DNA from: Schmidtea nova
Taxonomy: Eukaryota
Direction of reading: 5' to 3'
DNA length: 64,000 nucleotides
NCBI GenBank assembly: GCA_044892505.1
Contig: CM097883.1
Span: 201,438,001 to 201,502,000, forward strand
Below the pieces are notes generated by a model. That model did no database searches and was not told where the DNA came from. It worked only from the letters and a program-made list of their open reading frames with translations. Shown here piece after piece: positions 36,633-59,100 of the stretch. The position numbers and the translations under genes were made by a program. Numbering within the stretch: position 1 is the stretch's first letter; each line of letters starts with the position of its first letter.

Positions 36633-36694
36633 GCTGATTGGCTAACCAACAACACCGGTTCAGTATAAATACTGAAGTCAAATCAGTATTTGAC
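36633..36694 (+). promoter_or_regulatory. Candidate promoter in LTR (ATTGG/CCAAT box, TATAAATA at 36664)
   Basis: CTGATTGG at about 36634 and TATAAATA 36664-36671, conserved in the 3' LTR. Confidence 0.35.
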
Positions 36695-37782: not shown

Positions 37783-38418
37783 ATGATAAAGACCGAGGGA
37801 TACCAAAGGAATCTGATCGTCTCACGACATATGAAAGTGGAGGATTATGTCATCCGGAAAAAACGACGTATCCGTTCCGTCATCCAGCCAAAGAGGAACC
37901 CTACCATCGATGGAGAAATGGAAGCCCCACGCAGAATTAGCGAAACTGCGCGTCGACACTTACGCCGGTGGATAAGACATCATATGAGTGCAGCCGCCGA
38001 TATTCCGGCTTGCGCTTTCACGATACAATTACGATGGGAAGGAGACCCCGAGTGGACCTCCACCGCGGATCCTGCCGAGCCAAGGACCGATAGATGGTTC
38101 TACCAATTCCTCGACGGACAGCAACGACCCCGTTGGTTATTGAGTAATGAAATGATGACGGGAAGGGCTCTATATCAATTAGGGTACATGCTGCTAGACA
38201 GGCCTCGGTGTCGCTACACTGAGGAAGTCTTCGCCTACTCCAACGCGCCAGGAAGCGTGTCCTTAGATCAGTACCCCGAGCTCAAGGAGCTTCGCCTCTG
38301 GGAGGTGTTTATCTACAAAGATAAACTGAGTTGGAACCCAGCCCCAGAAATGTATTGGGAGAATGGAATTCGGTGCGACGAGTATCCCGCTGATCAGGAA
38401 TTGAGAGCATTCGGGTGA
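37783..38418 (+). CDS. LTR-internal ORF A, 211 aa, unknown function
   Basis: ATG start, uninterrupted 211 codons, preceded by CACTAAC branch point, pyrimidine tract and CAG at 37776-37778. Confidence 0.6.
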   Translation: MIKTEGYQRNLIVSRHMKVEDYVIRKKRRIRSVIQPKRNPTIDGEMEAPRRISETARRHLRRWIRHHMSAAADIPACAFTIQLRWEGDPEWTSTADPAEPRTDRWFYQFLDGQQRPRWLLSNEMMTGRALYQLGYMLLDRPRCRYTEEVFAYSNAPGSVSLDQYPELKELRLWEVFIYKDKLSWNPAPEMYWENGIRCDEYPADQELRAFG

Positions 38419-38571
38419 TCGACACAACCCGAACAAGAATGATTGTCGTAGATATAAAAATATATGTATTTGTGTGCGAACGGTCTTGTTTTGTTTTTCG
38501 AGTGCATGAGAATAGCATGATGATAAGGTGGAGTTGTTTAATAACGACAGGATGACCGAAAGATCGGACAA

Positions 38572-39171
38572 ATGACATATACCACAATTAATGATATATT
38601 TACAGACATGACTGAAACCAAGGACAGAGATTTCAAGCAAGAGGCGCGAGAACATAAGGCGCGTTCACGAGTCTTGGAAAATCGTTTAAGGCAACTGAAT
38701 GACGAGCATCAGAGGATCAAGACAACATGGTTTAACCCAGAGAGGGTTAAAGCCATCCTGCAAGCTAGATACAGGGTGGAACGAGCAGCTGAGGAACATG
38801 CCAGAGAGGTTGCAGCCCTGAAATTGGAGTTGGCCAATTACTTAAAGGTATCGACTCAGGATTTTATCACCGAACAATTGCGCCCAATGATCAGAGCGAG
38901 CACCTTTAACCGATGGGTGGACACGATAGCGGTAACCACGAGTACCCAAACGGAAACAGATGCAGTCGCAATCACGACGATCGAACCGACAACAAGGACT
39001 CCAGCAGGCTCAAAACGAACGAAGAGAAGGAATCGCCTCGGAGCGAAAAAGCGGCGAGAGCGACGTGCATATGCGGATCGCCTCGGGATAGAAGTAGACT
39101 TGCTCAGTGGTCTATCTGAACAAGAACTTCTGAATGTAATTAGACCATCAGTGTTATTGAATTATAAATAA
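38572..39171 (+). CDS. LTR-internal ORF B, 199 aa, coiled-coil plus basic NLS-like tract
   Basis: ATG start, heptad-rich N-half, KRTKRRNRLGAKKRRERR; AATAAA overlaps the stop. Confidence 0.6.
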   Translation: MTYTTINDIFTDMTETKDRDFKQEAREHKARSRVLENRLRQLNDEHQRIKTTWFNPERVKAILQARYRVERAAEEHAREVAALKLELANYLKVSTQDFITEQLRPMIRASTFNRWVDTIAVTTSTQTETDAVAITTIEPTTRTPAGSKRTKRRNRLGAKKRRERRAYADRLGIEVDLLSGLSEQELLNVIRPSVLLNYK

Positions 39172-39174
39172 ATG

Positions 39175-39368
39175 TATATAAATGAATGATTTGACTTGTC
39201 TTGTTTGTTTGAAGTATGTATGAGAATTAAAAGTAATGAAAACCTGGTTCATTTAAAGCTGCAGATATCTAAAAAGTAAATTACCCTAGGACAAAAGAAA
39301 AGAGCATAAGTGGGACCGAAAGAAATCCACAAACACCTTCTAACGGTAGTGGTGGACCCGTGAATAAA
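39175..39368 (+). promoter_or_regulatory. Candidate U3/R/U5 signals: TATATAAA (39175) and AATAAA (39363)
   Basis: Spacing TATA - about 190 nt - polyA signal - about 190 nt - PBS fits canonical LTR geometry. Confidence 0.4.
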
Positions 39369-39562
39369 CAAGGGAATAGTAGCCGCAAGGTTGCTCACCT
39401 GCCTTGTCATTTCACAACGTTGACACAGCACCAACATGATGAGTAGTTAGGGATACATCATGGGTGTCAGCGGGGGAATGTTTTTATGTTGGCGAGATCA
39501 CCCTAATAGATAAAATCCTAATGATCTCAGTTGTCAATCTAACCAACACACCCGCATAAATT

Positions 39563-39580
39563 TGGGAGCTCAGCCGGGAT
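39563..39580 (+). other. Primer binding site, tRNA-Pro-like
   Basis: TGGGAGCTCAGCCGGGAT matches the classical tRNA-Pro PBS TGGGGGCTCGTCCGGGAT at 15/18 positions. Confidence 0.7.
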
Positions 39581-40118
39581 TAAATCGATCGTTGTGTGAA
39601 AAAGTGAATTCGATATCTGCGGACAGTTTTAGAGCGCATGAACCGGGATGAAATTGAATTAGTGAGGAAAAGTAAAGTAAAGAATGATAGAGGGTTTGAG
39701 GATCCTGAAGCAAGAATGAATCGGGTTGAAAAATAATAAATAAAAGTATGAGTGTAAAAGAATGAGAATGATGAGAATGATGAAAGGATGCATGAGAATG
39801 AAAGTATGAATGATAACGGAATGGAAGTATGAGGACGAATGAAGTATGATGAATAGTATGTGGAGTAACAGTATGAAAAGTGACAAAAGGTATGCATGAC
39901 GCAATATAAAAGTATGTTGAAAGGTATGCATGAAAATGATATGAATGTAGACAACTAACAATGATCATGTCGGGGCGACATTCAAGAACACGGGGGGATA
40001 CGCAAGTAACGACGTAAAACAGAACAACAGAAAGCGAACAGTAGGACTACCATAGAATAGGAATGATAAATGATAAATAAAAATCGAAAACCAAATTTAA
40101 TGAGAATTCGTTCAGGGG

Positions 40119-40577
40119 ATGGAGAACAAAACAAAAGAAATGCAAACGTTTTTCGAAACAAACAACGAAACAGTGGAGACAATAATGAGGAAGTTAAGAC
40201 GACTCGAGGTAGGAGAATATCACGAACCGACAAACAACACAGAAAGAGCCGAAAGGATGATGAGCTTAAGTGAGAATAAGAACACAGTGGATACAGCAAC
40301 ACGATATCAATGGTATAGAGAAAGATTAAACAACCCTGAGATGAATATCGAGTGCCACAGGCTAGAACAACAGATTGCAACAAAACACGACGAGTGGATA
40401 AGAAGAACAACCGAACATACGAGACAATATCTGACGTGTTACATCTGTGAAATAAACAAAATACAGATAATGTTGTTGCCGTGTGGGCATTTTCGATTCT
40501 GTAATGAATGTAAAATAAATGAACAATGTCCTATGTGCAACCTTCCCGTATCCGAGAAAATAACAGTGTACTTGTAA
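40119..40577 (+). CDS. RING finger protein (IAP/MDM2-type C-terminal C3HC4 RING), 152 aa, no BIR
   Basis: CYICEINKIQIMLLPCGHFRFCNECKINEQCPMCNLPVSEKITVYL at the extreme C-terminus. Confidence 0.85.
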   Translation: MENKTKEMQTFFETNNETVETIMRKLRRLEVGEYHEPTNNTERAERMMSLSENKNTVDTATRYQWYRERLNNPEMNIECHRLEQQIATKHDEWIRRTTEHTRQYLTCYICEINKIQIMLLPCGHFRFCNECKINEQCPMCNLPVSEKITVYL

Positions 40578-42665: not shown

Positions 42666-43626
42666 GTCAACGAGAGATGTCAGTGGAATCAAAGGTGAGA
42701 AGAGATGGGAATTGAAATGAAGTAGTAAACGCAGTGTGAATAGGAAATAAAGCGAATAGTTGAGAAATAGAGTAGTCGACAGATAAGGGGAGATTTGAAC
42801 TCAGAGCCAGAGAAGCCTGAGAAAAGTAAAGGGGATAATAAGAGCGCTGAGCGACAAAGTAATTGGGGAACTGGGGAAAAGTAATTGGTGTATTTGATAA
42901 TGAATAGATAATTGATACGACTGCATAGATAATTTAAATAGACTTAAAATCAAGGGAAATGGGAAAAATGGGGATCTTCATGAATTATGACTACACCCGT
43001 GAGAGGGACGAGAAACACGATAACGGGGACGTATCGTGTAAGTGATTATTTGTTTTAAGGAAACAAATCAATCAAGCAATTCAAAGCAATCTAGCAGTCA
43101 GAGCAATCAAAGGAAACAAATCAAAGAAGAAGCAAAACAAAAGCGAAGTAGAAAATCAGTTGAGAATATAAGAAGTTGAGGAATAGACAAAATTGCGGAA
43201 CGCGAAACAAGGACAGGTATAATACCAATCCTAACAGAAGCAGAAAGAAAAGCAGCAAAAAGGGCAAAAGCAGCAGCTAAATTAGCGCAACAAAAGGTCG
43301 ACACAGAAGCGATCTTAACCGAAGAAGAAAGAAAAGCAGCGAAAAAGACAAGGCCAGGAAATAAAGCAGCGCAACTGAAGAACAAACCAGCAGAGATCAG
43401 CGATAATTCGAGTAATAAAGAGAATCAAGAAGAAATCCCAGAGGATCCAGAAGTACCAAACGAAGAAGAAACGATAGACAGTGAACTAGTCAGTGAAAAC
43501 AGAACAAGAAGCGAATCAAGAGATAACGAAACAGACAATAGTGAAGAAGAAGAGTTGAATCCAGAAACAAGTGGTGAAATAGAAGCAAAGAAAACTAGTA
43601 CAGTATTCCAAGATAGTGGAATCGGG

Positions 43627-45447
43627 ATGAGTGATCACAGAGAGGATCTAAGAGAAAAATTCAAGGGCGAACCATTCAATGGAGACGCCAGTAGATTGGA
43701 CACGTTTCTGAAGGAGTTTGGCATATTTGTGGATATATGCGGATGGAGTGCAGAAACGTTGGCAAATCGAATCCCGCTATACTTGAAAGATAGCGCATTG
43801 GATCTGTATATTGAAAAGCGATCTGGAAGTAGTCCACCCAGAACGTGGGAAGCGATCAAGGAGTTCTTCCAACAGACGTTTGGGATAAACAAAGTGCTGA
43901 ATGAAGCATTCGATGAGTTTTCAGCAAGAAAACAAAGGAGAAACGAGTCAAATGCGGTGTACGCAAGTGAACTGAGAAAGTTGGCGAAACTGGCGTTCAA
44001 CAGAGGAAGTCCAGTAGATGAGGAATTGATGACAGCGTTATTCGTACGAGGTCTCAGGAGACCTGACATCAGAGCACAAGTGGGATGCAAAGGATGTAAA
44101 ACAGTAGACGAAGCGTTGGAAGCAGCCAACCTATTCGAATTGCATATGGCAATGAACGACATGAGAATTACGGCGGTAATGGGAAAAACGACAGAAGATG
44201 AAGAACAAGGAAAAAGAAATATGAATCAAAGTATTCCCCATTCGCAGAGATTGTTCAAAGAACCGCCAGCGAGGAAGAATAACGGATATATCACGGTGAA
44301 CACGAATGGAGGAAATAGTTACAATGACAGGCAGAATAGGCAATGTCAGACGTGTGGGAAAAACGGACATTGGCAACAAGATTGTTTTCAGAATGTAGCC
44401 TGTAAACTGTGTGGACAAAAAGGTCACTCAGAAAATCGATGTTATGGGAAAACGTGTTACACATGTGGAAAAACCGGACACATGTCAAGAGACTGTAATC
44501 AACAGAGAAGTTGGTCAAACAGTGGAAATAGACCGAATTACGGGAATCGACCAAGCTATGGGAATCAGGGTCAACAACGGAATAACCCAAACAGCAGTGC
44601 AAACGAAGCTAGTATGAAAGAAGCCAAGTTGAGACAGGAGGTATCCAGATTACACGAGATAATCGAAAGCATGGCAAAGGGGAGCCAGCAAGCTGCTCAA
44701 CCAAAGATAAACATGATCCAGTTAATAGAAGCTGAGGCCGAAAGAGAGAATAGAGAAAGCCAACAGAAACATAATCAAGAATGGGCTAGAGTACGACGAG
44801 AAGAAGAACAAGTCAGGCAACAACGATTACAACAGTTAAAAAAGGGAAATCCAAGGATCAACATGATGCGAGCAATGATGGAAGAGAAGCAGCAGGATGA
44901 GTCAGACGAGTTAGAAGTTAAAGAGAAAAGAAACGAAGAGCAGAAACAAGAAGAAGTGAATCAGGAAGTAGAAGTCGCAGAGCAGAATCAAAAGGATGAA
45001 GAAGTAGAAAAAGAAACAGAAACAGAAAAAGAAGTAGAAAAAGAAACGAATCAAGAAGAGGAAGTGAGAATCAAACAAAGAGGAATGTTGGTGATCATGC
45101 CGAATGATCACGTATGGCGATTCAAATATGATGTAAAAGAAGAAGTAGGAAGACTGTTCAACAAAGTAAATGAGATGATTCCGGGAGTAACGAAACTGCC
45201 CAGAGAAGCATTCCTACAAACAGAGGATTTACCGGAAGTAAAGTTGAAGATGACTGATATATGGGAAGATATGGGAGTAACAGAGACGAAAATGAACGTG
45301 ATGATCATCAGAGAGGTGGAACCGGAGAAAATCCCACCACCAGTGAAACATCAAACCCGGATCAGTCGAATATTCAAGGGAAAAATAAGACGAAGACGGT
45401 TGGAAGAAAAAACGAATTGGAGAAAAGAATGGGAAAAGCTGAAATAA
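43627..45447 (+). CDS. gag: Gag (capsid + three CCHC zinc knuckles + acidic/coiled tail); frame open from 43180
   Basis: PFNGD..LDTFL..LYLKDSALDLY..TWEAIKEFF..KQRRNES..YASELRKLA; CQTCGKNGHWQQDC, CKLCGQKGHSENRC, CYTCGKTGHMSRDC (44344-44496). Confidence 0.92.
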   Translation: MSDHREDLREKFKGEPFNGDASRLDTFLKEFGIFVDICGWSAETLANRIPLYLKDSALDLYIEKRSGSSPPRTWEAIKEFFQQTFGINKVLNEAFDEFSARKQRRNESNAVYASELRKLAKLAFNRGSPVDEELMTALFVRGLRRPDIRAQVGCKGCKTVDEALEAANLFELHMAMNDMRITAVMGKTTEDEEQGKRNMNQSIPHSQRLFKEPPARKNNGYITVNTNGGNSYNDRQNRQCQTCGKNGHWQQDCFQNVACKLCGQKGHSENRCYGKTCYTCGKTGHMSRDCNQQRSWSNSGNRPNYGNRPSYGNQGQQRNNPNSSANEASMKEAKLRQEVSRLHEIIESMAKGSQQAAQPKINMIQLIEAEAERENRESQQKHNQEWARVRREEEQVRQQRLQQLKKGNPRINMMRAMMEEKQQDESDELEVKEKRNEEQKQEEVNQEVEVAEQNQKDEEVEKETETEKEVEKETNQEEEVRIKQRGMLVIMPNDHVWRFKYDVKEEVGRLFNKVNEMIPGVTKLPREAFLQTEDLPEVKLKMTDIWEDMGVTETKMNVMIIREVEPEKIPPPVKHQTRISRIFKGKIRRRRLEEKTNWRKEWEKLK

Positions 45448-45803: not shown

Positions 45804-45830
45804 GTAATACAGGAGTTCATAGAGAAGTTA

Positions 45831-48800
45831 TTGAAAGAACCACTCAACGAATACGTAGTACAAATATGGATAAACGAGTGTTCACCGAGAATCTGGATAA
45901 GGAACCCAATGACGGATGGAATTTACAGATGGGTTGAGGACAGATTGGGAAGCTCCTACAAAGACAAATTCATATATTCGGAAAACGGATTGGTGAGAAA
46001 AGGAACGCATATGATAGACACAGGCATCTGGCCAGGAGAAATAACGACGTTATCTATATGCAACACCAAAAAGGAAGAGAACTTACAAGGGATCGTCAAA
46101 GAAGCGAATATGTGTTACGAGATGAGAATAAAACCTCAGTTGATAGAGACAAAAGAGAGAATCTTGGCGGAGAATTTGAATACGATGATAGAACAGATCA
46201 TCCAGCAAATCAAGAAACATCGAAAGGAATTGACGAAAAGCGAGTATGAGAATTTGAAGCAATGTATCGAGACCATACGAGATACAAGTCAAACGAGGCA
46301 TTCAAACTTCAAAACGGACAAGCTAATCGCAAAGATGGGAAAAGAAATGTTTAAAAGAGGAGAAGTATCAGATCTGAAGATTACCGTGAGATTACCGAAT
46401 GAAGAGACAAGACAAATTGAGGTAATACCAGATAGTAAAGTAGGAGAAATAGTAGATGTCATCAATGAGACGATATTACAACGAGAACGGGAAGATGAAC
46501 TCGAGGATGACATCGCTATAAAATACAAAGAACATCTACTGAACGAACGTGACGAAAGACGAGCGTACAAAATCGGCATATGGGATAATTATCAGACAAT
46601 ACATGTCATCAGAATGGATGATGTGCAAAGAGCAACACCAAGAGATGAGGAAAGGAAAAAGAAACGACAAGAGGACGTTATGCGCAAGTTGAGGCAGATA
46701 GTAGAAATCTATCGTAAATGGCAGATGAAGCCAGAATGGGAGACAATATTGGGAGAATTGGATCTTAACAGACGACGATTGACGCCAGTAGAGAAGCAAT
46801 GGGATAACAAAGAGAAATGTTGGAAAGTGAAAAGAGGCGTGTATGAAGAAGATCCAGAAGGAGAAGACAGATATGAAACGAATACGAAACGGATATGTAT
46901 GGTAACAAGGAGGTTATTACCAACGGACTTAGACGAACCAGAAACTGCAGTAATATGGGCAGAATTGGAGAAACAGAAAACGAATGAATTAATCGAGCTG
47001 TTGAGAGGAAATACTCGGAGAAAAAGACAAACAATAAAAGGCTTAGCACAATTCATAATCACAAATGGAGAAGACATGACGAACTTGAGAAAAGCAGCTA
47101 AAGCGATAGCAGAATACAAGAGAGTTAACGAGTGGTGTCCAGAGCAACTAGACGATGTAATAAAAAAGTGGAGAAACAAAGAGTTTGCGGAAGAAACGCC
47201 ACAGAAAATACATTTGAGGATAATGTATCCAAATCAGAGAAAAGAAGAGTTTTGGGTGATGCTAACAGAAAAAGTGAAGAGTGTTAAAGAGAAACTGATG
47301 TATGAACTACCATTCCACCTGCAACATCAAGGACGATCGTTAGATAACAGTTTGGAAATCTGGCTGACACCAGTACAATTGGATCTAATGAATACGCTAA
47401 CAGTGGCACAGATAGTGGGTCAACCACTGAAGTTTAAAGAGGAAAAGAAAGCGAAAGGAAGCATGAGTACACCAAGTCCGATGAAGTCAACAATGACCAC
47501 AGGAACAAGTTCGGGACAAGCAAGGACAACACCAATAAAAACGAGAGAGAGAACACCGCCAGAAGCGTATGACGTCGATGAGATACTAACAGACAGTGAT
47601 GAAGCGATAGAAGAATTAACAAAGTTGACTCAAAAACCAACGGCGAATATTTTTGACAGAATAATAGAGATGCCAATAACGTCACCAGCAGAAATCGACG
47701 ATCAAGGAGTGGAACAGGAGGTAGTCATAGAAATGGTAAACGATTCGGAAGAAGAGCAAGAACAACCACAGTTTACTCAAGAAATGGAAAGATGGTTAGA
47801 ACAACGAGCAAACGAGGGAAGAGATGTTACAGAAGAAACCGGAAGAGCAACGAGATTTGTAGAAACCGGAACTGGAATGGAAAAACGACCAAGAGGAAGA
47901 CCAAAGATAGACCCAACAACAGCAATTCCAAAGACAAGGGAAGAAAGGAGACAAGAGCAATGGGAGACTTGCTTGAAGAAACTGGATAAAATCGCAGAGA
48001 TCAGAGGCAAAGAGGAGAATCAAGTCTGCCAAGGAGAAGAATGGCTCACCAAAACGATAATGGATGTGTTAGCGATAATTGATCCAGAATTAAGGAATTT
48101 GTGGCGGATAAACGAACCTAGTACAAAGGCAAAGATGCTACACAATGCGATAGCACCAATTATGCCAGAATTGATAAAAGCAAAAACAAAATCGAATCAT
48201 CTAGATTGGCAAGGAACCACGATGTTAATAAAAAGGCTACTTAACGGAGCAGAAACGGACACCAAATATCTAGTAGCAATCTCGTATACGATATACAATC
48301 TACTAACGCTAAGCCGAGGGAGTCCGAAGTCAAGTCCGATGGGAAGACATATCAAAAATACGGCGATGATTATCGAGAAGGAAATTGAACCATATATCCT
48401 CAGAAAAGGAGGATGGGAGAAGTTCATAAAAGAAAACCAGGCGAAAGAAGGTTCTAACGTGATGAGAAAGAAACTCGAAGGAGTATTGAGAGAAATGGAG
48501 AATAGACAAACGATGCAAGGAAACGGAAGATCGACGTTGAATCTAAATTCGATAATCATGATGATGTTAGTATGGTTGTTAAGCACAGAAGGTGTAACAA
48601 CTTTCGAGGTATTTGACTGTGATCAAATGAAGTTGGGAGAAAAGTACTCATTGAGAGGTACGGAGCAATGCAAAGATGCAACTCCAGTAGAGTTAAAAGA
48701 GATTAAAAAAGAACAATGGTACCACGTATATCAAGAGGCAGAACTAATAAAGACAATGGTGAATGAATGCAAAGTGCAAAAGACGAGATTCGCATTCTAT

Positions 48801-51800
48801 TGTGGTAGAGGACATTATTCAGCAATTGTCATGCCAGGAACAGAAAGAGAACCAATCGTGTTGCAAGGAGAAGACTGCGAAGCATTGTTTAAGCATGGAG
48901 AAGTGACAACGAGAGACAAAATCAAGATAAGAGGAAAGCCAGGAATGATGTTACAGCAGACGTATTATGTAGCAGGACGAATTACGGGAGGAGAAGGGTA
49001 TTGTCAAGGAGAAACATACCCAATATTCGGAGTACCCGCAACCAACTTAGTGGTGATGGATACGTACATAGTCGAACTGAAAAGCTACGAAGCATTCTTC
49101 GAACCAACAACAGGAGAAATGAAAACGTTATCCATGAGTAAAATTGACAGAAGCATGTGTCAAACGGGAATGTCAACATTGGTATACAAACCGAAAGTGA
49201 ACGAATGTCAATTACAACTGCTACAAGGAGCAAAGTTCGACGAAATCCAAGGCAAAACGTTCCAAGAAGAGGACGATGACGACAAAGCTAGAGCAAAACA
49301 TCTCAAAGAAGCTTTAGAGAATAAAAGACAATTGAAACCGGATCATAGAGAGAAACGGATAGAGATGAGAACCACACCAACAGTGTTGATAACCACAAAT
49401 CAGGATGTGGGCATGAGATTCATAAAAGGGAAAGCAACCCTTAAGTGCAGTACAACAGTATACGAAACAAACTATCCAGGAATATATGTGTCAAAGCAAG
49501 AAGTACCGAATACGAAACCCAAGATCGACACAATGGATATCAAGCTACACTTGTATGTGAATAATAAAATGGATTTCTTATTCCATAGAGGACAAGCCTC
49601 ATTGCAAAAAGTGTACTACGATCTGATAAATAACGATTGTATACTGAATCGGGAAATATTAAAGACAAAGTTGGCCGTAGCGATTACGAATCCAGATAGC
49701 GCGATGCCGTTATTACCACTGAGAGAAGGACATTTCGGAAGAGTGGTCGGAGAAGCAATGTACGTATACATTTGCGAAAAGACACACGCATCGCTAGCAG
49801 CAACAACGCAGTTGAAACCTGGACAATGTACAAACGAACTAGAAATCGATTATAAAGGAAAAGTACGATACGTTCAACCGGTGACGAGAATTATCAATCC
49901 ACCAGGGTTTGAACCAAATCCATTCAACTGTAGTAATGCGTACGGACCGCTTTATCAGAAGCCAGATGGCAAATGGGTTATGTTCCCAGGAAGAACTGAA
50001 GTATTAGCACCAAGAGAATTTGAGCTAATGCAGTTGTCAAAGGATAGACAGTTCAGCGACGTAGATGTCTCAAACAACGGAATCTATAGTCCAAAGGATC
50101 TAGAAGCAGCAAGGCAGAATATATTATTCCCGGCAAGAAGAGAAGCATTACTGTCAAATATCGTAACGATAACGGGAGGAACGAATTATCGAGAAGGACC
50201 GAATTACGAACTGCTGTTGTCACCGGCACATTTCAAGAAAGCCACAGAAAATATGATGAAGGCAATGTGGGGAAGATTCCTGATATTCGGACAAATGATG
50301 GCTGGAATACTGGGAGTGATATTGATAATACAAATCGTCAGAGTGATAATAACGCAGATGTTAGCGTGTTTCGACATCTACAAGAGAGAAAAGAAAGTGA
50401 ATTGGAAGATGGTAGTAGGATTCTTACCATTCCTTGCGAAAACGATGGTGTTACACGGACACTCAAAAGACATACATCGAATAAAGAGGTTGTTGAAGAT
50501 ACTTGCGAAAATGAGAGGAACAAACGAAGATGTCGGAAGGAAATTCAAAAAGATTATACAAGACGAGCAAGCAAGACGACAACTAAAGAAAGAAAGGAAA
50601 GGATTATGGGAAAGAGTAAGGGGATATCGAACACAAGATGATTCAAGCAACGACGACGATGACGATGACGATCGAGGAGGACAAGCGAATATAAACCAGA
50701 TTCCACAGTATAACGAAAAGAGTGCAGTTGAGAATTGGAGATACAGCGCTCCACCCCAGTCAATGTATAACGAACCTATATATAAAGCGAAGCCGAATAT
50801 GATGCAGATGATGCCGATGACAAGTATATACCCGATAATTCCAGAAGACTGCAAAGTAAAACGAGGTAGAAGCGTAGACTCGTTGGAAGACACGCACACG
50901 ATAGCGGTTATGTCCACAAATATGGGACCGATTTTAACAACAACCGTAGAAATAAACGGAAGAGAAATCGAAGCAATGATCGATACAGGCGCGAATATTT
51001 CGGCAATCGACATCAATTATATACCCGAGAAAAATCAAGGAGAAATCGAGAAGACGAATGTACATGTAATCGCGTGCAGTCAGGAGACAGTAGAAGTAGC
51101 CGGAAGATGGTTTGTAAAAATTAAGCATCGAGGTGCAGAAATCAACACGTACATCGCTGTAATACCATCGCTGAGTGTACCATGTATTATTGGAACTGAC
51201 CTGATGCCAGACCTGTTCAAGGAAATCGTAATTGATCTAGGAGCAATGAAACTAAAAGATAGAACAGGAAAAATCTGCAGAATGAAAGTTAAAGTGGCAA
51301 GCACGGAACAAATAGTAGTGCCAGCGAGACATGAAATGATGTGTTATGTAAAGATCGATTCAACAATAAAGGGAGATATGATATTCGAACCCAGTAAGAA
51401 GTTCGAAGCGAAGAAAGAATTACCAATGGCAAGAGAATTGGTTACGATAAACCAAGAAGGAGAAATACCGATCAATCTGGTAAACTTCGACGAAGAGGAC
51501 AAGATAATATACGAGAATGAGAATTTGGGTAAATTGACACCCATGTCCGAAATCGAAATACCAGACAAGAATGAGAAAGGCAAAGGCGAATTACCATGGA
51601 AAATCGACAGTATGTTGTTAGACGAGCAACAAAAAGAACAGTTACAGAAACTGTTGATGGAGTATCAAGACATATTCGCAGCATCAGATCTGGATTTAGG
51701 AACATGTGACGTAACATTACATACGATACCGTTGACAGACGAGACGCCAATCGCATTAAGACCATATAAACTGGCAGAAGCTCAAAAAGCAGTGGCAGAA

Positions 51801-54800
51801 GAAGAGGTACAAAAGATGTTAGATGCAGAGGTCATCGAACCCAGTTGCTCACCCTGGCAATTCCCAGTGGTGATGGTGAAAAAGAAGGATGGAACTCAGA
51901 GATTCTGTATCGATTACAGACGATTGAACGCAGTTACGAAAAGAGATACGTACCCACTGCCAGACATAAATGAAATGTTGTTGACGCTACAAGGAGCAGC
52001 CTATTTCACGTCACTGGATTTAAAGAGCGGATATTGGCAGATCAAAATGAAAGACGAGGATAAAGAAAAGACAGCTTTCACAATCGGACGAGATCTGTAC
52101 CAATTCAAGAAAATGCCGTTTGGGTTAACAAACGCGCCACCATCATTCCAGAGATGCATGAATTTCGTAACACATGGCATAAAACAATGCATGGTGTATA
52201 TCGACGATCTATTGATCTACTCCGCAACATTTGAAGATCATTTACAAGACATCAGAAATGTGTTCGTGAAATTAAGGCAGTGGAAACTGAAATTGAAGCC
52301 GTCAAAGTGCGATTGGGCAAAAGAGAAAGTGACATTCTTAGGTCACATTGTATCAGCAAAAGGAAAAGAACCAGATCCAAGGAATATCGAAAAAGTCAAA
52401 GAATGTCCACCACCAAAGACAGTGACTCAAATACAAGAATTTTTGGGATTGTGTGGATATTATCGAAAGTTTATCAAGGACTATGCAGGAATATCAAAGC
52501 CAATGCAAGAATTAGTAAGACAAGACGTGTCGTTTGTATGGGGACCAGAACAGCAAGCAGCATTTGAAACATTACGAGATAAGCTGATTACAGCACCAAT
52601 ATTGGTCCATCCAAACTTTAAGAAGCCATTTCTGTTGGCAACAGACGCAAGTGGATATGCAGCAGGAGCAGTACTAGGCCAATTTGACGAAGAAGGCAAG
52701 GAAAGAGTAATCGGATATTACAGTCGAACCTTCAGGAAGCATGAAAAGAATTACTCAGTCACGGAAAGAGAAGCCTATGCGATAATATTGGCAATCAAGC
52801 ATTTCAAATACCTATTGTGGGGTCATGAGATATATATTACAACGGATCATCAACCATTGGTATGGTTAGGTCAACATAAAGAATCATCAAGTAGATTGAT
52901 GCGTTGGGCGATGCAACTACAAGAATACTCGCCATTCATAAAGTTTAAAGCAGGAAAAGCAAATGCGAACGCAGATTGCATGTCAAGATTTACATTCCCA
53001 GAATTGGTGAACCTAAACGCTCTGAAAATATGTGCATTAATAGCGGAGGATTTGGATTTCAACGAATTAAGGAAAGATCAACTCGAAGAGGAAGAGTTGG
53101 GATTGATCAGCAAGTACTTGAAAGAAAGGGAAATAGAAAAATTCGGCAAGAACCAAATGTTGCGCGAACATATGCAGAAATATCAACATAGATATGTGAT
53201 GGAAAAAGGATGGTTATTGATACAAGATGGAGAACGAAGATTAATGTGCTTACCTGCGAATAGACGAAAGGAAATCATGACTCAATATCATGACGGAAAA
53301 TTAGGCGGACATATGTCAGCAAAAAAGACAATAGGGAGATTGAGACAAAAGTATTTTTGGCCAACCATGGAAGATGATGTGAAGGAATGGATAAAGAACT
53401 GCTTAACCTGTGCGACAAGAAAGAACGTCGGAACAAAGTGGAAAACACCACTAAAACCAATGCCAATACCTGCAGAACCAATGGCAACAATAGCAATGGA
53501 TGTAGTTGGGCCATTGCCGGAAAGTTTAAAGGGGAATCAATATATCTTAGTAGTCACGGACTACCTAACGAAGTTCCCAGAAGCGTTCGCAATACCAGAT
53601 CAAAAGGCGAAAACAGTCGCGAGAATATTGGTGGAAGAGATATGCTGCAGATACGGAACACCAAAGAAAATCCTAACGGATCAAGGAACAAATTTCATGA
53701 GTGAAATATTAGACGAAGTAACGAATTACTTCCGAATCGCGAAATTACGAACATCCCCATACCATCCACAAACGAACGGTCAAACAGAAAGGTTCAATGG
53801 AACATTGATACGCATGTTGTCAAATTACGTCAGTAAACATCAAACTGACTGGGACGAATATATTAACTTGTGTTTAATGGCATATAGAATGTCAATACAT
53901 GCGGCAACAAAGCTAAGTCCATTCCAACTAATGTACGGAAGAGATTACAACTTACCGATCGATTTAGAATACCAACCACCATTATCGCAGTACATGGAGG
54001 TTGACGATTACGTTACAAAGTTCAAAGAAAGAATGCAAGAAATCTGGAAAACGGCGGAACTAAACATCAAGTTCTATCAAGAGAGTTACAAGGATCTACA
54101 TGATCAGAAAAAGAATGTGAAAGCACATGATTTAAAAGTTGGAGATTGGGTGATAATCGAAACACCAGAGATAATACCCGGTACGGTGAAGAAACTCCAA
54201 CGACCAGGCAAAGGGCCATATGAAATCACGACAGTGAATGAAAACAATGTGCGAGTACGATTGGTGAACAATCCATTGGTAAGACCAATATACGTGAACG
54301 CATGTCGATGCAGGAAAATACCAAAGACAGCAACTCTATCACCAGAGAAACGGGTGATGACAAGATCACAGACGGCGAGAATTAATATGTTGCGAGTACA
54401 ACAAAAGCCGCAAACAAGTCTAGAAGACAACCGAAGAGGAGCAACGGATATCAAAGAACTGGCAAAGAGGACCAGAGAAATTATACCAGAATGGAAATGG
54501 TGGTTCGATTTCAATATACTGTCAGAAGTACGGAAAAACGTAATGGAGTATGCGAAGGATAGAACAGGGCATCCAATAACAAGAACGCTGCTAGAGGAGA
54601 TCCCGCAAACGTTTAATTTACAAGACAAAGACGGTAACACAGCGTTGCACAATGCAATCAAGCACAGTGGGAACGAAAAAGTGAAAGAGATCGTAGAGAT
54701 GATACTCGAAGGTGGGGGAGAAATTGACAAAGTGAATTGGGAAGGAATCACTCCACTCATGATGATGACAATTCATGGAAGAAACGATGAAATAGTCAAG

Positions 54801-57800
54801 CTATTCGGAAACACCAGATCAAATTGGATGACAAAAGATAAAGAAGGACGAACATTCTTGAATCATGCAATTGACAGAGCAAATCACCGAATACTGAAGT
54901 ATATCACGGAAAATGCCACGTGGGAAATCGATGAACTAACCAGAGGATCGATCATGAAACAAGCAATCGGAGTTAGAAACAGTAAAACCTGGAGAATATT
55001 GCTAAAGTGGAAACGACCAGAAGGAGATTCGTGGGTCGTAGATTGTAATGAAGTATTCACAAGGGGAGAAAATGCGTTACTGAAACATCTATTAGAAGTA
55101 GCATACGATCCAAAAACACTTGCAGTGTTGATAGCGAGAGATACGTTACGGGTTAGCGAAAACCCAAGAGAATACAAGTTGGATGACCGAAAGAAGGAAC
55201 TATTCGGATTAATCAAGAAATGGTGTGATAAGCAATGGAATCCGGATATGAGCTTCGAACATTTTTATGACATCCAAAAGCAGCACAAAGAAATAAGCAA
55301 GCGATATAAAGAGCTGGTGGAAGCATTGAAGTATGGACAATTCTTCAGACAAGCAGTGTATCAAGACCAACGGATGAAACAGATGCAAACACGAATAAGA
55401 AGCAAAGCAGTGTTGTTCAATGCAAAAGCCGATTATCAAGAGAGATTAGACGCAATCGTAGCAAAAGCACAGGAAAAATTATCGGAATTCAAAGAGAATA
55501 AAAACTCGTTGGAAATACTAGGAGCAATTACAGAGAAAGTACACAGATACGCACAAGGAGATTATAACGAGAGTGACATAGAAACGATCAAAAATCAAAT
55601 GCCAGTAGCATTCCTATTATCAAAGGATGGGAAATTGCCGATACACTGGGCATTACGTCGAAGGAAAGAAAACGAAGTGCTAGAAATAACAAAAGCGATG
55701 GTCAAGTGCGAAGCAGACATGAATACGGTTGATGATAATGGAGACACAGTCATGATAATCGCAGCAAGAAAGAAGACGAACTTTAAAGTGCTAAGTAAAT
55801 TTTACGAAGCAGGAGCAAAAATTGAAGGGAAAAATGGAAAGAATAATTCCATCACAGATATCGCAATACAGTGGAACAACTTCGAGATGATCAAGTTCAT
55901 AAAGTCCATCAAGAAACAAGATGATATAGAATACCTGGCAAATAACGTAAAGAATTTCAGTCTGACAGTAATGATACACGACGTAGAGAAAACAAGAGCA
56001 TTACTAACATGGGTGAATCCGATCACCAAGGAACCAGTGTTCAAGATCAATGACCATATGGAACAGAATCAGAATTGGTGTATCAGAAGCGCGTTATTAA
56101 GACACAAAAAGCCAGAGATAGTAGAAGAATTCCTAAAGAGAAGAGATTTGAAATTCACGAACAACCCAAAGGAACAGGAACGAATGGGAAGATGGAAAGA
56201 CTTATTCAGAAAATATGTGAAGGAGTGGGCAAATGCCAAAGAAACGATCAAGCAAAGTGGACTAAAAGACATAGAACCATCCAAGGATATGGAAATACGT
56301 GAATTCGAGTCTAGCACACTCGCAGTTCAAGCGTATGAAAGATTGATTGAAGAAATTAATGTCGAGGACGACATTTCGAAAGGACCAGGGGGTGGTTACA
56401 GAGACTTCGACGACAAAAGTAACAATGAAAAGAACAACGAAGACAATGACAACAAAAGAACAGAGGATAATGGAAAAGAAAGACAAGAAGAACCGAAACC
56501 AACGAGAAACGACAAGAAAGGAGAAGCCGAAGAACGAGAAAACAGTGGAACAAAAGACGAACGTACGAACTATGGAAAACGAACAGGAAGTCTACTTTTG
56601 AGACCAGAAATGTTGTGTATTGCGATATTGATAACAATCATCGGACAAGGAGAAGCCAAGAAACAATACGTCACGCTAGAGATAATCAGAGGAAATGAAG
56701 TATACGAAAAAATATGCTGGAAAGAAAACATGAGGAAAAACGATACGCTGAAGTGTATATTGTCAGATTTGAAGCGAGACGTCATCCAAATCAAAGGATT
56801 GGAGAAAGAAAAGTCATACATAATATGCGCAATAAAGCAGAGAGGAGAACCAAAAGCACCTCAAGTAACTGCGTGTCAATTATATAAAGCAACAGAAGCG
56901 CTGAAAATACAGAAATGGGTTGGGAAAAGAAGTGAAGAGACAACGAGAAGAACAGAAGTGGAATCAGAGAAAGGGAAGAATCAATCTGAAGCAGAAGAGG
57001 GAATCAGAAACCGAACAGAGAAAGAAAGAATAACCAAAAATCCAGCGGGCAAATTAACATTCCAACCAGAATTGATATGTGTAGCATTAATATTAATCCT
57101 TATTAAGAGAATCATGGAGGACATAGATATCAGCGTGATGACGTTAGTAAATATCCAAGACCAACGAACAACGAATGGAAGATGTTGGGGACGAAACAAT
57201 GAAGTAATGGGAATCAGCGAAACAAGAGAAAGTCGAGAAGCAGAGACAAATGAAGAAATCGAAATAACAGAAATAGAGACAGATAAAAAATGTGAACTAT
57301 GTCTCATGGAAAAGGCAGCAAACGGAAACAGACCAGGAACAAGCGAGTGTAAAGTGTTCCAAGCAAAGGAGATAATTGAGTTCCCAAAAAGAAAGAAACA
57401 AGATCAAGAAATGATTGCGAATGAAGTAGTAACAGTGGAGATAAAAAACATTGATCGGAGAACAATTGGGATGTGTTGGAGAAAATACATCGGAGTATCG
57501 ACCAACATCATAATACCGCAATGTAGAACGAGAGAACGAGGAATCCCGTTTCCACTAAATGGATTCGAAGTCGGACAAGCATACGAAATCTGCATAATCC
57601 GAAGAATAAGAGAAGTAATACAAAGAAGCCTGGAGTGCAAACTGTACAAGACGCCAGAGCAAATTAACGGAACGAGAACGATTGAAATGGGAAGAAGTCG
57701 ACAGAGGAAAAGAAAGTCAAGAAGAATCACGACAACCAACAGTCAAGGAACTCAACAGACAACAACAGAAAGGACGACAATAGAAAACGAACCGGAATCA

Positions 57801-58535
57801 ACAACGTTGATAATATGGAAGATCCATAAAAAAGTCCTAGAAATCTGTTGGACATTAATGCCAAACAGTATGGGAAAGTCCCCACGAAACTGTCAAAAGA
57901 CATCAAATAATAAAGGAGAAATAATCGAGGTAGAAATGAGGAAGTTGAAAACAAACGCAGAATACGAAGTATGTGCAATCGAAGAAGTGGACGCACAAGG
58001 AAATCCACAGGAAAGGTGCGACACCTATTACACGCCAAAGAACATAACAACCAAAAGGAGAATCAGAAAGTTAGAATTCAGAGAATTGAGCCTAAAAAGA
58101 GAACAAACAGAGACGGAAGAAGCAACATCTAGTCAACAAGAAAGATGGGAACCAGAGAAAGTGATCGAAGAAGTCAGACGGAGACAACAACAATATGAAC
58201 AATGGGAAGCAGAATGGAAAGGTCAATATGGCGTGATGATAAACCAAAGTGAAACTCCAAAAAGGAGCATTGGAAAAACAATAATGGGATTAATCAGTAT
58301 GGGAGTATTCATAGGGTGTATACCGCTGATAACGATCATGATAGTATGTTGGAGATATGGCATGAGAAATAAGACCATAGCAGTAAAATGGCCGGACGTA
58401 AAGGTCACGAATTACAACATAAAACTACCAAAAGCAGTACGAGAAGAGCTGAAAAGACGATCAAAACACGAAGAGATGTGGGTACAGATCGAAGACGAGG
58501 AACTGTACGAAGGAAAACCAGTGATAGTTGTATAG
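45831..58535 (+). CDS. pol: 4234-aa polyprotein: Ubl-like / Bcl-2-like / Env / PR / RT / RNase H / IN / ankyrin / FN3-like + TM
   Basis: Single uninterrupted frame (open from 45804; listed start is TTG) containing all the domains listed below. Confidence 0.95.
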   Translation: MKEPLNEYVVQIWINECSPRIWIRNPMTDGIYRWVEDRLGSSYKDKFIYSENGLVRKGTHMIDTGIWPGEITTLSICNTKKEENLQGIVKEANMCYEMRIKPQLIETKERILAENLNTMIEQIIQQIKKHRKELTKSEYENLKQCIETIRDTSQTRHSNFKTDKLIAKMGKEMFKRGEVSDLKITVRLPNEETRQIEVIPDSKVGEIVDVINETILQREREDELEDDIAIKYKEHLLNERDERRAYKIGIWDNYQTIHVIRMDDVQRATPRDEERKKKRQEDVMRKLRQIVEIYRKWQMKPEWETILGELDLNRRRLTPVEKQWDNKEKCWKVKRGVYEEDPEGEDRYETNTKRICMVTRRLLPTDLDEPETAVIWAELEKQKTNELIELLRGNTRRKRQTIKGLAQFIITNGEDMTNLRKAAKAIAEYKRVNEWCPEQLDDVIKKWRNKEFAEETPQKIHLRIMYPNQRKEEFWVMLTEKVKSVKEKLMYELPFHLQHQGRSLDNSLEIWLTPVQLDLMNTLTVAQIVGQPLKFKEEKKAKGSMSTPSPMKSTMTTGTSSGQARTTPIKTRERTPPEAYDVDEILTDSDEAIEELTKLTQKPTANIFDRIIEMPITSPAEIDDQGVEQEVVIEMVNDSEEEQEQPQFTQEMERWLEQRANEGRDVTEETGRATRFVETGTGMEKRPRGRPKIDPTTAIPKTREERRQEQWETCLKKLDKIAEIRGKEENQVCQGEEWLTKTIMDVLAIIDPELRNLWRINEPSTKAKMLHNAIAPIMPELIKAKTKSNHLDWQGTTMLIKRLLNGAETDTKYLVAISYTIYNLLTLSRGSPKSSPMGRHIKNTAMIIEKEIEPYILRKGGWEKFIKENQAKEGSNVMRKKLEGVLREMENRQTMQGNGRSTLNLNSIIMMMLVWLLSTEGVTTFEVFDCDQMKLGEKYSLRGTEQCKDATPVELKEIKKEQWYHVYQEAELIKTMVNECKVQKTRFAFYCGRGHYSAIVMPGTEREPIVLQGEDCEALFKHGEVTTRDKIKIRGKPGMMLQQTYYVAGRITGGEGYCQGETYPIFGVPATNLVVMDTYIVELKSYEAFFEPTTGEMKTLSMSKIDRSMCQTGMSTLVYKPKVNECQLQLLQGAKFDEIQGKTFQEEDDDDKARAKHLKEALENKRQLKPDHREKRIEMRTTPTVLITTNQDVGMRFIKGKATLKCSTTVYETNYPGIYVSKQEVPNTKPKIDTMDIKLHLYVNNKMDFLFHRGQASLQKVYYDLINNDCILNREILKTKLAVAITNPDSAMPLLPLREGHFGRVVGEAMYVYICEKTHASLAATTQLKPGQCTNELEIDYKGKVRYVQPVTRIINPPGFEPNPFNCSNAYGPLYQKPDGKWVMFPGRTEVLAPREFELMQLSKDRQFSDVDVSNNGIYSPKDLEAARQNILFPARREALLSNIVTITGGTNYREGPNYELLLSPAHFKKATENMMKAMWGRFLIFGQMMAGILGVILIIQIVRVIITQMLACFDIYKREKKVNWKMVVGFLPFLAKTMVLHGHSKDIHRIKRLLKILAKMRGTNEDVGRKFKKIIQDEQARRQLKKERKGLWERVRGYRTQDDSSNDDDDDDDRGGQANINQIPQYNEKSAVENWRYSAPPQSMYNEPIYKAKPNMMQMMPMTSIYPIIPEDCKVKRGRSVDSLEDTHTIAVMSTNMGPILTTTVEINGREIEAMIDTGANISAIDINYIPEKNQGEIEKTNVHVIACSQETVEVAGRWFVKIKHRGAEINTYIAVIPSLSVPCIIGTDLMPDLFKEIVIDLGAMKLKDRTGKICRMKVKVASTEQIVVPARHEMMCYVKIDSTIKGDMIFEPSKKFEAKKELPMARELVTINQEGEIPINLVNFDEEDKIIYENENLGKLTPMSEIEIPDKNEKGKGELPWKIDSMLLDEQQKEQLQKLLMEYQDIFAASDLDLGTCDVTLHTIPLTDETPIALRPYKLAEAQKAVAEEEVQKMLDAEVIEPSCSPWQFPVVMVKKKDGTQRFCIDYRRLNAVTKRDTYPLPDINEMLLTLQGAAYFTSLDLKSGYWQIKMKDEDKEKTAFTIGRDLYQFKKMPFGLTNAPPSFQRCMNFVTHGIKQCMVYIDDLLIYSATFEDHLQDIRNVFVKLRQWKLKLKPSKCDWAKEKVTFLGHIVSAKGKEPDPRNIEKVKECPPPKTVTQIQEFLGLCGYYRKFIKDYAGISKPMQELVRQDVSFVWGPEQQAAFETLRDKLITAPILVHPNFKKPFLLATDASGYAAGAVLGQFDEEGKERVIGYYSRTFRKHEKNYSVTEREAYAIILAIKHFKYLLWGHEIYITTDHQPLVWLGQHKESSSRLMRWAMQLQEYSPFIKFKAGKANANADCMSRFTFPELVNLNALKICALIAEDLDFNELRKDQLEEEELGLISKYLKEREIEKFGKNQMLREHMQKYQHRYVMEKGWLLIQDGERRLMCLPANRRKEIMTQYHDGKLGGHMSAKKTIGRLRQKYFWPTMEDDVKEWIKNCLTCATRKNVGTKWKTPLKPMPIPAEPMATIAMDVVGPLPESLKGNQYILVVTDYLTKFPEAFAIPDQKAKTVARILVEEICCRYGTPKKILTDQGTNFMSEILDEVTNYFRIAKLRTSPYHPQTNGQTERFNGTLIRMLSNYVSKHQTDWDEYINLCLMAYRMSIHAATKLSPFQLMYGRDYNLPIDLEYQPPLSQYMEVDDYVTKFKERMQEIWKTAELNIKFYQESYKDLHDQKKNVKAHDLKVGDWVIIETPEIIPGTVKKLQRPGKGPYEITTVNENNVRVRLVNNPLVRPIYVNACRCRKIPKTATLSPEKRVMTRSQTARINMLRVQQKPQTSLEDNRRGATDIKELAKRTREIIPEWKWWFDFNILSEVRKNVMEYAKDRTGHPITRTLLEEIPQTFNLQDKDGNTALHNAIKHSGNEKVKEIVEMILEGGGEIDKVNWEGITPLMMMTIHGRNDEIVKLFGNTRSNWMTKDKEGRTFLNHAIDRANHRILKYITENATWEIDELTRGSIMKQAIGVRNSKTWRILLKWKRPEGDSWVVDCNEVFTRGENALLKHLLEVAYDPKTLAVLIARDTLRVSENPREYKLDDRKKELFGLIKKWCDKQWNPDMSFEHFYDIQKQHKEISKRYKELVEALKYGQFFRQAVYQDQRMKQMQTRIRSKAVLFNAKADYQERLDAIVAKAQEKLSEFKENKNSLEILGAITEKVHRYAQGDYNESDIETIKNQMPVAFLLSKDGKLPIHWALRRRKENEVLEITKAMVKCEADMNTVDDNGDTVMIIAARKKTNFKVLSKFYEAGAKIEGKNGKNNSITDIAIQWNNFEMIKFIKSIKKQDDIEYLANNVKNFSLTVMIHDVEKTRALLTWVNPITKEPVFKINDHMEQNQNWCIRSALLRHKKPEIVEEFLKRRDLKFTNNPKEQERMGRWKDLFRKYVKEWANAKETIKQSGLKDIEPSKDMEIREFESSTLAVQAYERLIEEINVEDDISKGPGGGYRDFDDKSNNEKNNEDNDNKRTEDNGKERQEEPKPTRNDKKGEAEERENSGTKDERTNYGKRTGSLLLRPEMLCIAILITIIGQGEAKKQYVTLEIIRGNEVYEKICWKENMRKNDTLKCILSDLKRDVIQIKGLEKEKSYIICAIKQRGEPKAPQVTACQLYKATEALKIQKWVGKRSEETTRRTEVESEKGKNQSEAEEGIRNRTEKERITKNPAGKLTFQPELICVALILILIKRIMEDIDISVMTLVNIQDQRTTNGRCWGRNNEVMGISETRESREAETNEEIEITEIETDKKCELCLMEKAANGNRPGTSECKVFQAKEIIEFPKRKKQDQEMIANEVVTVEIKNIDRRTIGMCWRKYIGVSTNIIIPQCRTRERGIPFPLNGFEVGQAYEICIIRRIREVIQRSLECKLYKTPEQINGTRTIEMGRSRQRKRKSRRITTTNSQGTQQTTTERTTIENEPESTTLIIWKIHKKVLEICWTLMPNSMGKSPRNCQKTSNNKGEIIEVEMRKLKTNAEYEVCAIEEVDAQGNPQERCDTYYTPKNITTKRRIRKLEFRELSLKREQTETEEATSSQQERWEPEKVIEEVRRRQQQYEQWEAEWKGQYGVMINQSETPKRSIGKTIMGLISMGVFIGCIPLITIMIVCWRYGMRNKTIAVKWPDVKVTNYNIKLPKAVREELKRRSKHEEMWVQIEDEELYEGKPVIVV
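45849..47417 (+). other. Two to three ubiquitin-like domains in polyprotein (45849-46061 weak; 46371-46613; 47202-47417)
   Basis: LKITVRLPNEETRQIEVIPDSKVGEIV..YKIGIWDNYQTIHVI and IHLRIMYPNQRKEEFWVMLTEKVKSVKEKL..HQGRSLDN..TLTV follow the beta-grasp pattern. Confidence 0.6.
47961..48440 (+). other. Bcl-2-like domain in polyprotein
   Basis: BH3-like CLKKLDKIAE, BH1-like LLNGAETDTKYLVAISY (NWGR not conserved), BH2-like EPYILRKGGWEKF (GGW at 48408-48416). Confidence 0.55.
48537..50460 (+). other. env: Envelope glycoprotein, class III fusion type (chuvirus/Monjiviricetes G-like), in frame upstream of protease
   Basis: Signal-like IIMMMLVWLLSTEG; FDC..YSL..C, ECKVQKTRFAFYCG.GH, YETNYPGIY, LHLYVNNKMDFL, DCILNREIL, VGEAMYVYIC, GIYSPKDLEAARQNILFPARREALL; TM 50277-50372. 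Confidence 0.8.
50930..51220 (+). other. Aspartic protease domain
   Basis: VEINGREIEAMIDTGANISAI (DTG at 50982) and CIIGTDLM. Confidence 0.95.
51780..52400 (+). other. Reverse transcriptase domain (Gypsy)
   Basis: SPWQFPVVMVKKKDG..FCIDYRRLN, LDLKSGYWQI, KTAF, MPFGLTNAPPSFQR, YIDD (52197-52208). Confidence 0.97.
52630..52990 (+). other. RNase H domain
   Basis: LATDASGYAAGAVL, NYSVTEREAYAI, TDHQPL, RLMRW, ANANADCMSR. Confidence 0.95.
53289..54320 (+). other. Integrase (HHCC + DDE core + GPY)
   Basis: HDGKLGGH..CLTC, IAMDVVGPLP, LTDQGTNF, YHPQTNGQTERFN, GKGPYEI. Confidence 0.96.
54612..55905 (+). other. Two ankyrin-repeat clusters (54612-54910 and 55614-55905)
   Basis: DKDGNTALHNAI, NWEGITPLMM, DKEGRTFLNHAI; KDGKLPIHWAL, DDNGDTVMIIAA, GKNNSITDIAI. 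Confidence 0.85.
56592..58349 (+). other. Four Cys-containing FN3-like repeats with two signal/TM-like segments and a C-terminal TM helix
   Basis: Repeats share C-W, L/F-x5-Y-x-[IV]-C and terminal C-x2-[YF]; hydrophobic PEMLCIAILITIIGQGEA (56592-56657), PELICVALILILI (about 57054-57110), TM IMGLISMGVFIGCIPLITIMIVC (58281-58349). Confidence 0.6.
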
Positions 58536-58660
58536 AGGGTGGAATATGAGTGTAAATAATAGTGTAAAAAACCAATGCATAACCGTATACGTATGGGTAT
58601 AAATATTATAAAACATAAAAACAGAAAAAAAGAGAATGATGTATATAACCTAGAAAAACA

Positions 58661-59011: not shown

Positions 59012-59100
59012 TGAATAAGCGGAAAATTGTGTAAAAACGTGTAAATAAAGAATCAGAAAAATCAAAAATATGGGGAAATTGATGTAAATATTGTTGTAGA

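Follow-up and report, generated by a model that had tools for sequence, protein, structure and literature searches.

We analyzed a 64,000-nucleotide stretch of the Schmidtea nova genome (GenBank assembly GCA_044892505.1, contig CM097883.1, positions 201,438,001 to 201,502,000 of the forward strand; hereafter the window), in which an initial annotation had placed an envelope gene (env) between gag and protease, in the reading frame of pol. We consider it highly probable that this env belongs, as its envelope part, to a young, multi-copy Burro-like Ty3/gypsy element of 29.6 kb, in whose family Gag, cargo domains, a fusion protein of class III and Pol lie in one frame and likely form one membrane-threaded precursor that is then cut. 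The in-frame gag-env-pol layout as such is already known, and the window's element is a further family of it.

Domain order of the large frame

Env, pol and the cargo occupy a stop-free frame of 4,243 codons, along which Pfam matches are ordered PF24664, RVP, RVT_1, RT_RNaseH, Integrase_H2C2 and rve. The features of this frame and of the preceding gag are as follows (coordinates are those of the window; amino acid (aa) numbers refer to the large frame).

43180..45447, +, gag: capsid (PF03732, E=4.4e-6) and three CCHC knuckles (PF00098)
45804..58535, +, large frame without a stop over 4,243 codons, spanning env, pol and cargo
48200..48440, +, Bcl-2-like domain (BH1-BH2 region) just ahead of the env signal, weak profile match
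48543..48605, +, internal signal-peptide-like hydrophobic stretch, aa 914-934 (hydropathy; same place in 10/10 relatives by eye)
48606..50267, +, class III fusion ectodomain of chuvirus G/herpes gB type
50295..50363, +, transmembrane helix (TM), aa ~1498-1520 (Kyte-Doolittle peak 2.55)
50364..50897, +, Env cytoplasmic tail, forming the linker of ~180 aa to the protease
50403..50453, +, second, weaker hydrophobic or amphipathic segment, kept in relatives and assumed to be membrane-apposed and non-spanning
50826..50840, +, IYPII, late-domain-like YP motif, unchanged in 20/20 copies
50898..50912, +, TIAVM, candidate protease cleavage site at the N-terminal protease border (by eye, against KICAL, RINML and the relatives' motifs)
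50940..51212, +, aspartic protease (PR), PF00077, E=5.2e-9, with DTG at 50982-50990 (aa 1727)
51876..52352, +, reverse transcriptase (RT) with YIDD, PF00078, E=4.4e-36
52539..52928, +, RNase H (RH), PF17917/PF17919
53253..54221, +, integrase (IN; H2C2, core and GPY), PF17921 and PF00665
54612..56000 (end approximate), +, ankyrin repeats 3' of integrase in three stretches, PF12796, E=1.9e-19
56586..58361, +, second membrane module at the frame end (hydrophobic stretches at aa 3597, 3751 and 4166 around Cys-patterned repeats)

The proposed position of env thus holds on its 3' side, where env, PR, RT, RH and IN share one frame, and holds on its 5' side for the family but not for the window copy. 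In the latter, gag is severed from the env-pol frame by a frame change within 45258-45447 and by a stop at 45801-45803, while in 23 of 30 surveyed loci all motif tags agree on an open path from capsid past the CCHC knuckles to the large frame. The window's own locus is among the seven that fail; one other of these is open but lacks one tag. For the family as a whole, an open reading frame (ORF) of about 5,100 codons can be inferred by combining two overlapping surveys (gag continuity, 23/30; env to protease, 18/20), rather than from one whole copy.

About 900 residues precede the env signal in frame, so this signal is internal. At their end lies the Bcl-2-like domain. A profile built from three sequences that had been chosen by eye matched Bcl-xL in the PDB with E=0.004, and 60/60 of the matches listed belong to the Bcl-2 family. 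A single-sequence search with the same segment gave no match in PDB, Pfam or Atlas, and a single-sequence structure model (predicted local distance difference test, pLDDT, 50) returned generic helical matches with Z up to 7.9 and no Bcl-2 protein among the best 50. By analogy with Bcl-2 domains, which precede tail anchors, the env signal may double as the tail anchor of this domain.

Beyond integrase and the ankyrin repeats, the second membrane module runs as a hydrophobic stretch, a luminal-looking region and a TM, and in the window it comprises four repeats of ~90 aa with an invariant C-W and two further Cys. The repeats may be FN3-like. A PDB assignment was not accepted, the best profile match having E=1.3. 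Two such hydrophobic stretches follow IN in 7/8 of the relatives that reach IN, so that Pol would be held by a membrane anchor on either side. A segment of ~90 aa between PR and RT is alike in 6/10 relatives and has no Pfam match.

Env is a predicted class III fusion protein

The initial annotation described a signal peptide, a Cys-patterned ectodomain, a TM, a linker of roughly 180 aa and a DTG protease within 48537..51220, and hydropathy and sequence agree with each of these. All 13 Cys of the ectodomain (aa 939-1376) are invariant across 11 aligned sequences. The proposed homology to chuvirus G and herpes gB was borne out by profile and fold comparisons. Monjiviricetes_fusion (PF24664) matches env with E=1.7e-73 and a score of 248 against a cut-off of 27 bits. 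Foldseek placed a chu-like virus G on top among viral models (E=8.5e-26) and herpesvirus gB on top in the PDB (E=2.5e-9), and in the VIA comparison 50/50 of the matches listed are gB, rhabdovirus G or thogotovirus GP. The structural side of this assignment has its weak points: the AlphaFold model of env, built from 11 sequences, is of moderate quality (pLDDT 60, predicted template modelling score 0.37), its TM-scores (template modelling scores) to gB are only ~0.2, and VIA Z values reach at most 7.4 with a large root-mean-square deviation (rmsd), for example, in the N-terminal half, Z 7.3 with an rmsd of 5.5 across 204 residues. Taken together, profile and fold support Env as a class III fusion protein with predicted fusion activity.

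The signal-ectodomain-TM-tail anatomy is likewise shared with chuvirus and xinmovirus G and herpesvirus gB. In contrast to these proteins, which are encoded by free-standing ORFs and are 10-20% identical to it, the window's Env is fused on both sides into a polyprotein.

Copies, selection and relatives

Comparison of the env-protease DNA with the same genome yielded 877 candidates, of which 40 were scored; all are 96-100% alike. The stretch from TM to DTG is open in 20/20 best-scoring loci, the window's included, and the entire 5.8-kb locus in 18/20. Ratios of nonsynonymous to synonymous differences (pN/pS), calculated from 190 non-independent pairs among these 20 copies, are 0.03 for env, 0.01 for TM, 0.09 for the linker, 0.01 for PR and 0.02 for RT. 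Env is therefore under strong purifying selection, as tight as that on RT. The value for the pre-env part (0.39) was set aside, since one of the 20 loci carries an indel that shifts the frame there.

The survey of genomes for an env-PR-RT order, suggested in the initial annotation, showed that this order recurs. Among ENA relatives with 30-38% identity, env, TM and protease lie in one called protein in 10/10 cases, and 6/10 carry a CCHC gag in the same protein too. Two or three protease-like domains per polyprotein are present in 9/10 relatives, several with one after integrase, versus one in the window's family; in relative P0010 the main protease is preceded by ankyrin-like cargo. A full HMMER search gave 904 matches, and 13 further env-protease fusions were found among 148 new ones. 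A word-index search for free-standing env relatives had found none among 7,959 candidates, a blank that, given the HMMER result, reflects a limit of sensitivity.

A first look for PF24664 in the same genome gave 3,413 candidates and revealed a second env family with the same order, two subfamilies and 36% env identity to the window's family. No stop interrupts env to D[ST]G in 12/15 of its loci. In both families the Bcl-2-like domain lies ~30-45 aa ahead of the env signal.

Late-domain-like motifs in the Env tail

The linkers of the window's family and its first ten relatives are largely unalignable, yet a YP word is present in 11/11, 41-63 aa before the first protease motif, and nine fit YPx(1 or 3)[LI]. 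PPxY (1 of 11) and P[ST]AP (0 of 11) are not enriched. As the YP pattern was chosen after seeing these 11 linkers, the sets examined later are the out-of-sample ones. In the second family, PTAP[VI]YPxEKL is found 68-69 aa ahead of the protease motif in 14/15 loci, the 15th being frameshifted there; these loci count as one independent observation. Among the 13 new fusions, YP is present in 10 (shuffle mean 2.9; 0/5000 shuffles reach it) and the stricter form in 7.

Similar motifs mark Envs that have a TM and a tail and no downstream protease. After 31 of the 148 new HMMER matches had been dropped as fragments or for want of a detectable TM, 104 such 'free' Envs, which may include truncated fusions, were scored: [LIV]YP occurs in 41/104 tails (shuffle mean 5.5, maximum 13) and P[ST]AP in 20/104 (mean 0.7, maximum 5), while PPxY is not enriched (5/104; shuffle maximum 6). 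In Env matches of 600-800 aa, the motif lies within the last 100 residues in 40/90, at a median of 14 aa from the C-terminus, with a density of 4.7 per 1000 aa at the tail end versus 0.26 in the ectodomain. The sequences in these tail sets are related to each other. On the Gag side, the window's gag and 5/6 relatives carry no late-domain-like motif.

In retroviral Gag, late domains of the PTAP type bind TSG101 and those of the YPXL type bind ALIX (PMC8952333). The linker looks like the captured Env's own ordinary tail, with the motif probably marking its old C-terminus, and the tail YP/PTAP motifs suggest Env-driven budding through the endosomal sorting complex required for transport (ESCRT). 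The fuller scheme for gag-env-pol elements, in which a whole glycoprotein ORF sits in frame between Gag cargo and protease, budding proceeds from ALIX/TSG101-type late domains in the Env tail, Gag is held by the Env signal and Pol rides on Env, is put forward tentatively, at somewhat less than even probability. If true, this would be a route of retroelement assembly with the retroviral division of labour reversed. In the literature searched, which covers few subscription journals, we found no report of late domains in such Env tails, nor of a second membrane module after Pol.

Alternatively, Env may have ceased to serve extracellular spread and persist as a membrane scaffold used in intracellular assembly or in cell-cell fusion, with YP acting as a tyrosine-based sorting signal rather than in budding. 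We regard this as unlikely. In its favour, IYPII also reads as YxxPhi, the ectodomain has only a single N-glycosylation sequon and lacks a clear furin site, and the window's element is known here from sequence alone, with no particle seen. The 13 invariant Cys and a pN/pS of 0.03 over the whole ectodomain speak against this reading. Since YP and PTAP/PSAP are enriched in the tails of free-standing relatives as well, ESCRT recruitment fits better than YxxPhi sorting.

Topology, translation and release of Pol

Hydropathy, together with conservation in relatives, supports the earlier proposal of a membrane-threaded polyprotein, and such a precursor is likely. Gag and cargo would be made in the cytosol until the internal signal (aa 914-934) sends the ectodomain into the endoplasmic reticulum. 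Signal peptidase would cut past the signal, whose hydrophobic core would keep the Gag/Bcl-2-like part anchored, and the TM would halt transfer, so that tail, PR, RT, RH and IN remain cytosolic, hanging on Env. Gag, Env and Pol would thereby be co-located on one membrane, an arrangement replacing the Gag-Pol frameshift of other elements. The linker, as the tail of the captured Env, would recruit ALIX/TSG101 through its YP/PTAP-type motifs for budding, and PR would then free itself by a cut at its N-terminal border, whereby Pol would pass into the core. The window copy, its Gag link lost, could move only with the help of sister copies.

A crude scan found no pyrimidine-rich acceptor-like site in 45804-51000 and, from TM to PR (50271-51100), no slippery heptamer, which makes it plausible that Env and Pol are translated in equal amounts. 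The two could share the frame and yet also, or mainly, be made from spliced or internally started RNAs in a ratio other than 1:1. Several Met codons ahead of the signal (aa 890-907) would allow an internal start, but the lack of an acceptor in the scanned region argues against splicing and, as no stop follows env, translation of a spliced env RNA would continue into Pol. This alternative appears improbable to us.

The proposed 1:1 tethering of Pol to the Env tail is plausible in the precursor, while a permanent tether is weakened by the candidate cleavage site ahead of PR. TIAVM lies 24-28 aa ahead of the catalytic Asp, and relatives carry KICSL, DICTL or EICTI just before the protease. The motif [RK][IV][NC][MVAL][ILMVF] occurs twice in gag (1/500 shuffles reach this number) and three times in the large frame (2/500), including the RH/IN border (KICAL) and a position after IN (RINML). 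As a border-like motif precedes PR, release of Pol by a cut after assembly is the likelier course, and its tether to the Env tail is probably a property of the precursor only. Retropepsins release themselves in Ty3 and retroviruses. That Pol nevertheless stays tethered in the mature particle, as an unknown architecture, is in line with the uninterrupted run from TM to PR, free of stop, acceptor-like site and slippery heptamer, and with the linker's pN/pS of 0.09. Against it stand retropepsin self-release, the border motif before PR in the window and in relatives, and the earlier publication of the layout; we judge it very improbable.

Nothing was found in favour of a misassembly or of a one-off nested insertion, and both are excluded by the open TM-protease junction in 20/20 loci, by the purifying selection on env and by the recurrence of the order in the genome's second family and in 23 relatives from other assemblies.

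Several points weigh against the single membrane-threaded precursor and its budding from the Env tail. Translation as one precursor, the topology and every cleavage are inferred here from the sequence. In the window's family the hydropathy of the signal peaks at only 1.5, and the second hydrophobic segment past the TM could, if spanning, change the topology. The survey covered the copies with the best scores, a choice biased towards intact frames. With respect to budding, 3/13 new fusions are without YP, YP and PPxY words occur on the Gag side in one relative out of six, and the window's IYPII fits YPx(n)L worse than do the relatives' motifs.

Comparison with known elements

The initial annotation did not recognise the architecture from other retroelements, but it is in print. 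In-frame gag-env-pol has been reported for the giant Burro elements of planarians (PMC6431247), and the GAG-ENV-POL order with an HSV/gB-type env (HSV, herpes simplex virus) has been reported in Nematoda, Bryozoa and Platyhelminthes, where it is not monophyletic and nine flatworm elements are listed (PMC13524379). Burro1 expression and anti-apoptotic cargo have also been reported (PMC13465017, PMC8532177).

Like Burro/GYPSM1 (PMC6431247), the window's element is ~30 kb long and has, at the family level, a Gag with three CCHC knuckles and one ORF of ~5,000 aa. Its dimensions agree with those described for Burro (internal part up to 25 kb, total ~30 kb, ORF of ~4,900-5,100 aa), with the ORF broken in the window copy. 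A BCL2-like domain, in-frame env, PR-RT-RH-IN, ankyrin repeats and MATH/TRAF and RING cargo are also shared. Differences concern first the position of MATH, which in the window is part of a TRAF-like ORF downstream of pol, whereas it lies inside ORF1 in Burro1 and in an upstream ORF in the Dugesia tigrina element. Second, the window's frame ends in a second membrane module, which is unmentioned in section 7 of PMC6431247. Third, no BIR domain was matched in the 12 ORFs scanned (short leader ORFs lay outside the scan), and the Ubi/SUMO-like and dUTPase-like parts, which in Burro lie before BCL2 and between PR and RT, respectively, have no Pfam match in the window's element; two by-eye Ubi/SUMO-like candidates gave no match in the PDB either, and the place of the dUTPase-like part is taken by the ~90-aa segment mentioned above. 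With Ubi, dUTPase and BIR unmatched in these searches and kinship judged by description, we call the element Burro-like rather than assigning it to Burro1-4.

As in the GAG-ENV-POL errantiviruses (PMC13524379), a gypsy pol is preceded by env and, further upstream, gag; the env is of gB/chuvirus type with signal and TM, and there are similar multiple copies with long terminal repeats (LTRs). By eye, the window's env is nearest Smed_errantivirus_5 and Smed_errantivirus_6, with the words PGTERE, GMRFIKGK and TNYPG common to the former; judged in the same way, the window's family is distinct and clearly diverged from both. This likeness by eye only, and a likeness to Burro taken from feature descriptions rather than from an alignment, count against the placement. 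The words 'polyprotein', 'cytoplasmic', 'late domain' and 'ESCRT' have 0 occurrences in the main text of PMC13524379. A further parallel is found in the non-canonical nematode endogenous retroviruses (Sacco et al. 2022, as described in PMC13524379), in which a metavirus carries a captured RNA-virus glycoprotein before pol.

A fusion protein kept under selection as tight as that on RT lends weight to the published view of Burro-like elements as integrated viruses. Moreover, the motifs in the Env tail make budding and Pol loading by a one-ORF element a testable question, through ALIX/TSG101 and ESCRT.

Ends, accessory genes and surroundings of the element

36263..39556, +, 5' LTR of 3,294 bp, TG...CA (direct-repeat comparison)
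39563..39580, +, stretch resembling a primer-binding site, starting TGG 6 nt past the LTR (sequence)
40104..40577, +, accessory RING-finger ORF (PF13920, E=4.3e-9)
59083..60513, +, accessory TRAF-like ORF (RING, zf-TRAF, MATH) 3' of pol (PF22486, E=8.2e-27; PF02176; PF21363)
62564..64000, +, 3' LTR, running past the window end to 65859 (extended coordinates, via locus L021), with TAAG directly after

The LTR element is young and multi-copy. Its LTRs are 99.4% alike (17 mismatches over ~3.3 kb), start with TG and end with CA, and are flanked by the 4-bp target-site duplication (TSD) TAAG, found at 36259-36262 and again after the 3' LTR. They enclose an internal part of 23.0 kb in a total of 29.6 kb, and the LTR and TSD features of Ty3/gypsy (TG...CA ends, TSD of 4-6 bp) are present. 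The element is assigned to Ty3/gypsy because the pol order by Pfam is PR-RT-RH-IN and the best PDB sequence match of pol is Ty3 Gag-Pol (E=9e-118). Troyka (PMC12440569) is unrelated, with CG..CG ends and a 3-bp TSD. The stretch at 39563..39580 may resemble a tRNA-Pro primer-binding site.

The 3.3-kb LTR holds two ORFs, at 37726-38418 (230 codons) and 38545-39171 (208 codons), neither with a significant Pfam match. The leader ahead of gag contains a tandem array of 19-bp repeats (41292-41913). Further accessory ORFs lie at 58649-59011, 60573-61763 and 61954-62361; two look coiled-coil and one is small with a single TM. Over 42001-62000 the element's sense strand shows a strong excess of A and G, with an AT skew reaching 0.47 and a GC skew reaching 0.33, and GC content is 38-41% versus mostly 21-34% in the flank. 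The flank carries decayed fragments of a protein-primed polymerase B (32666-34235, - strand; PF03175 below cut-off) and, near these, an ORF without Pfam match (26995-27729), both possibly Polinton-like remains. A DDE_3 (Tc1/mariner-type) transposase fragment lies at 14079-14729 (E=2.4e-11).

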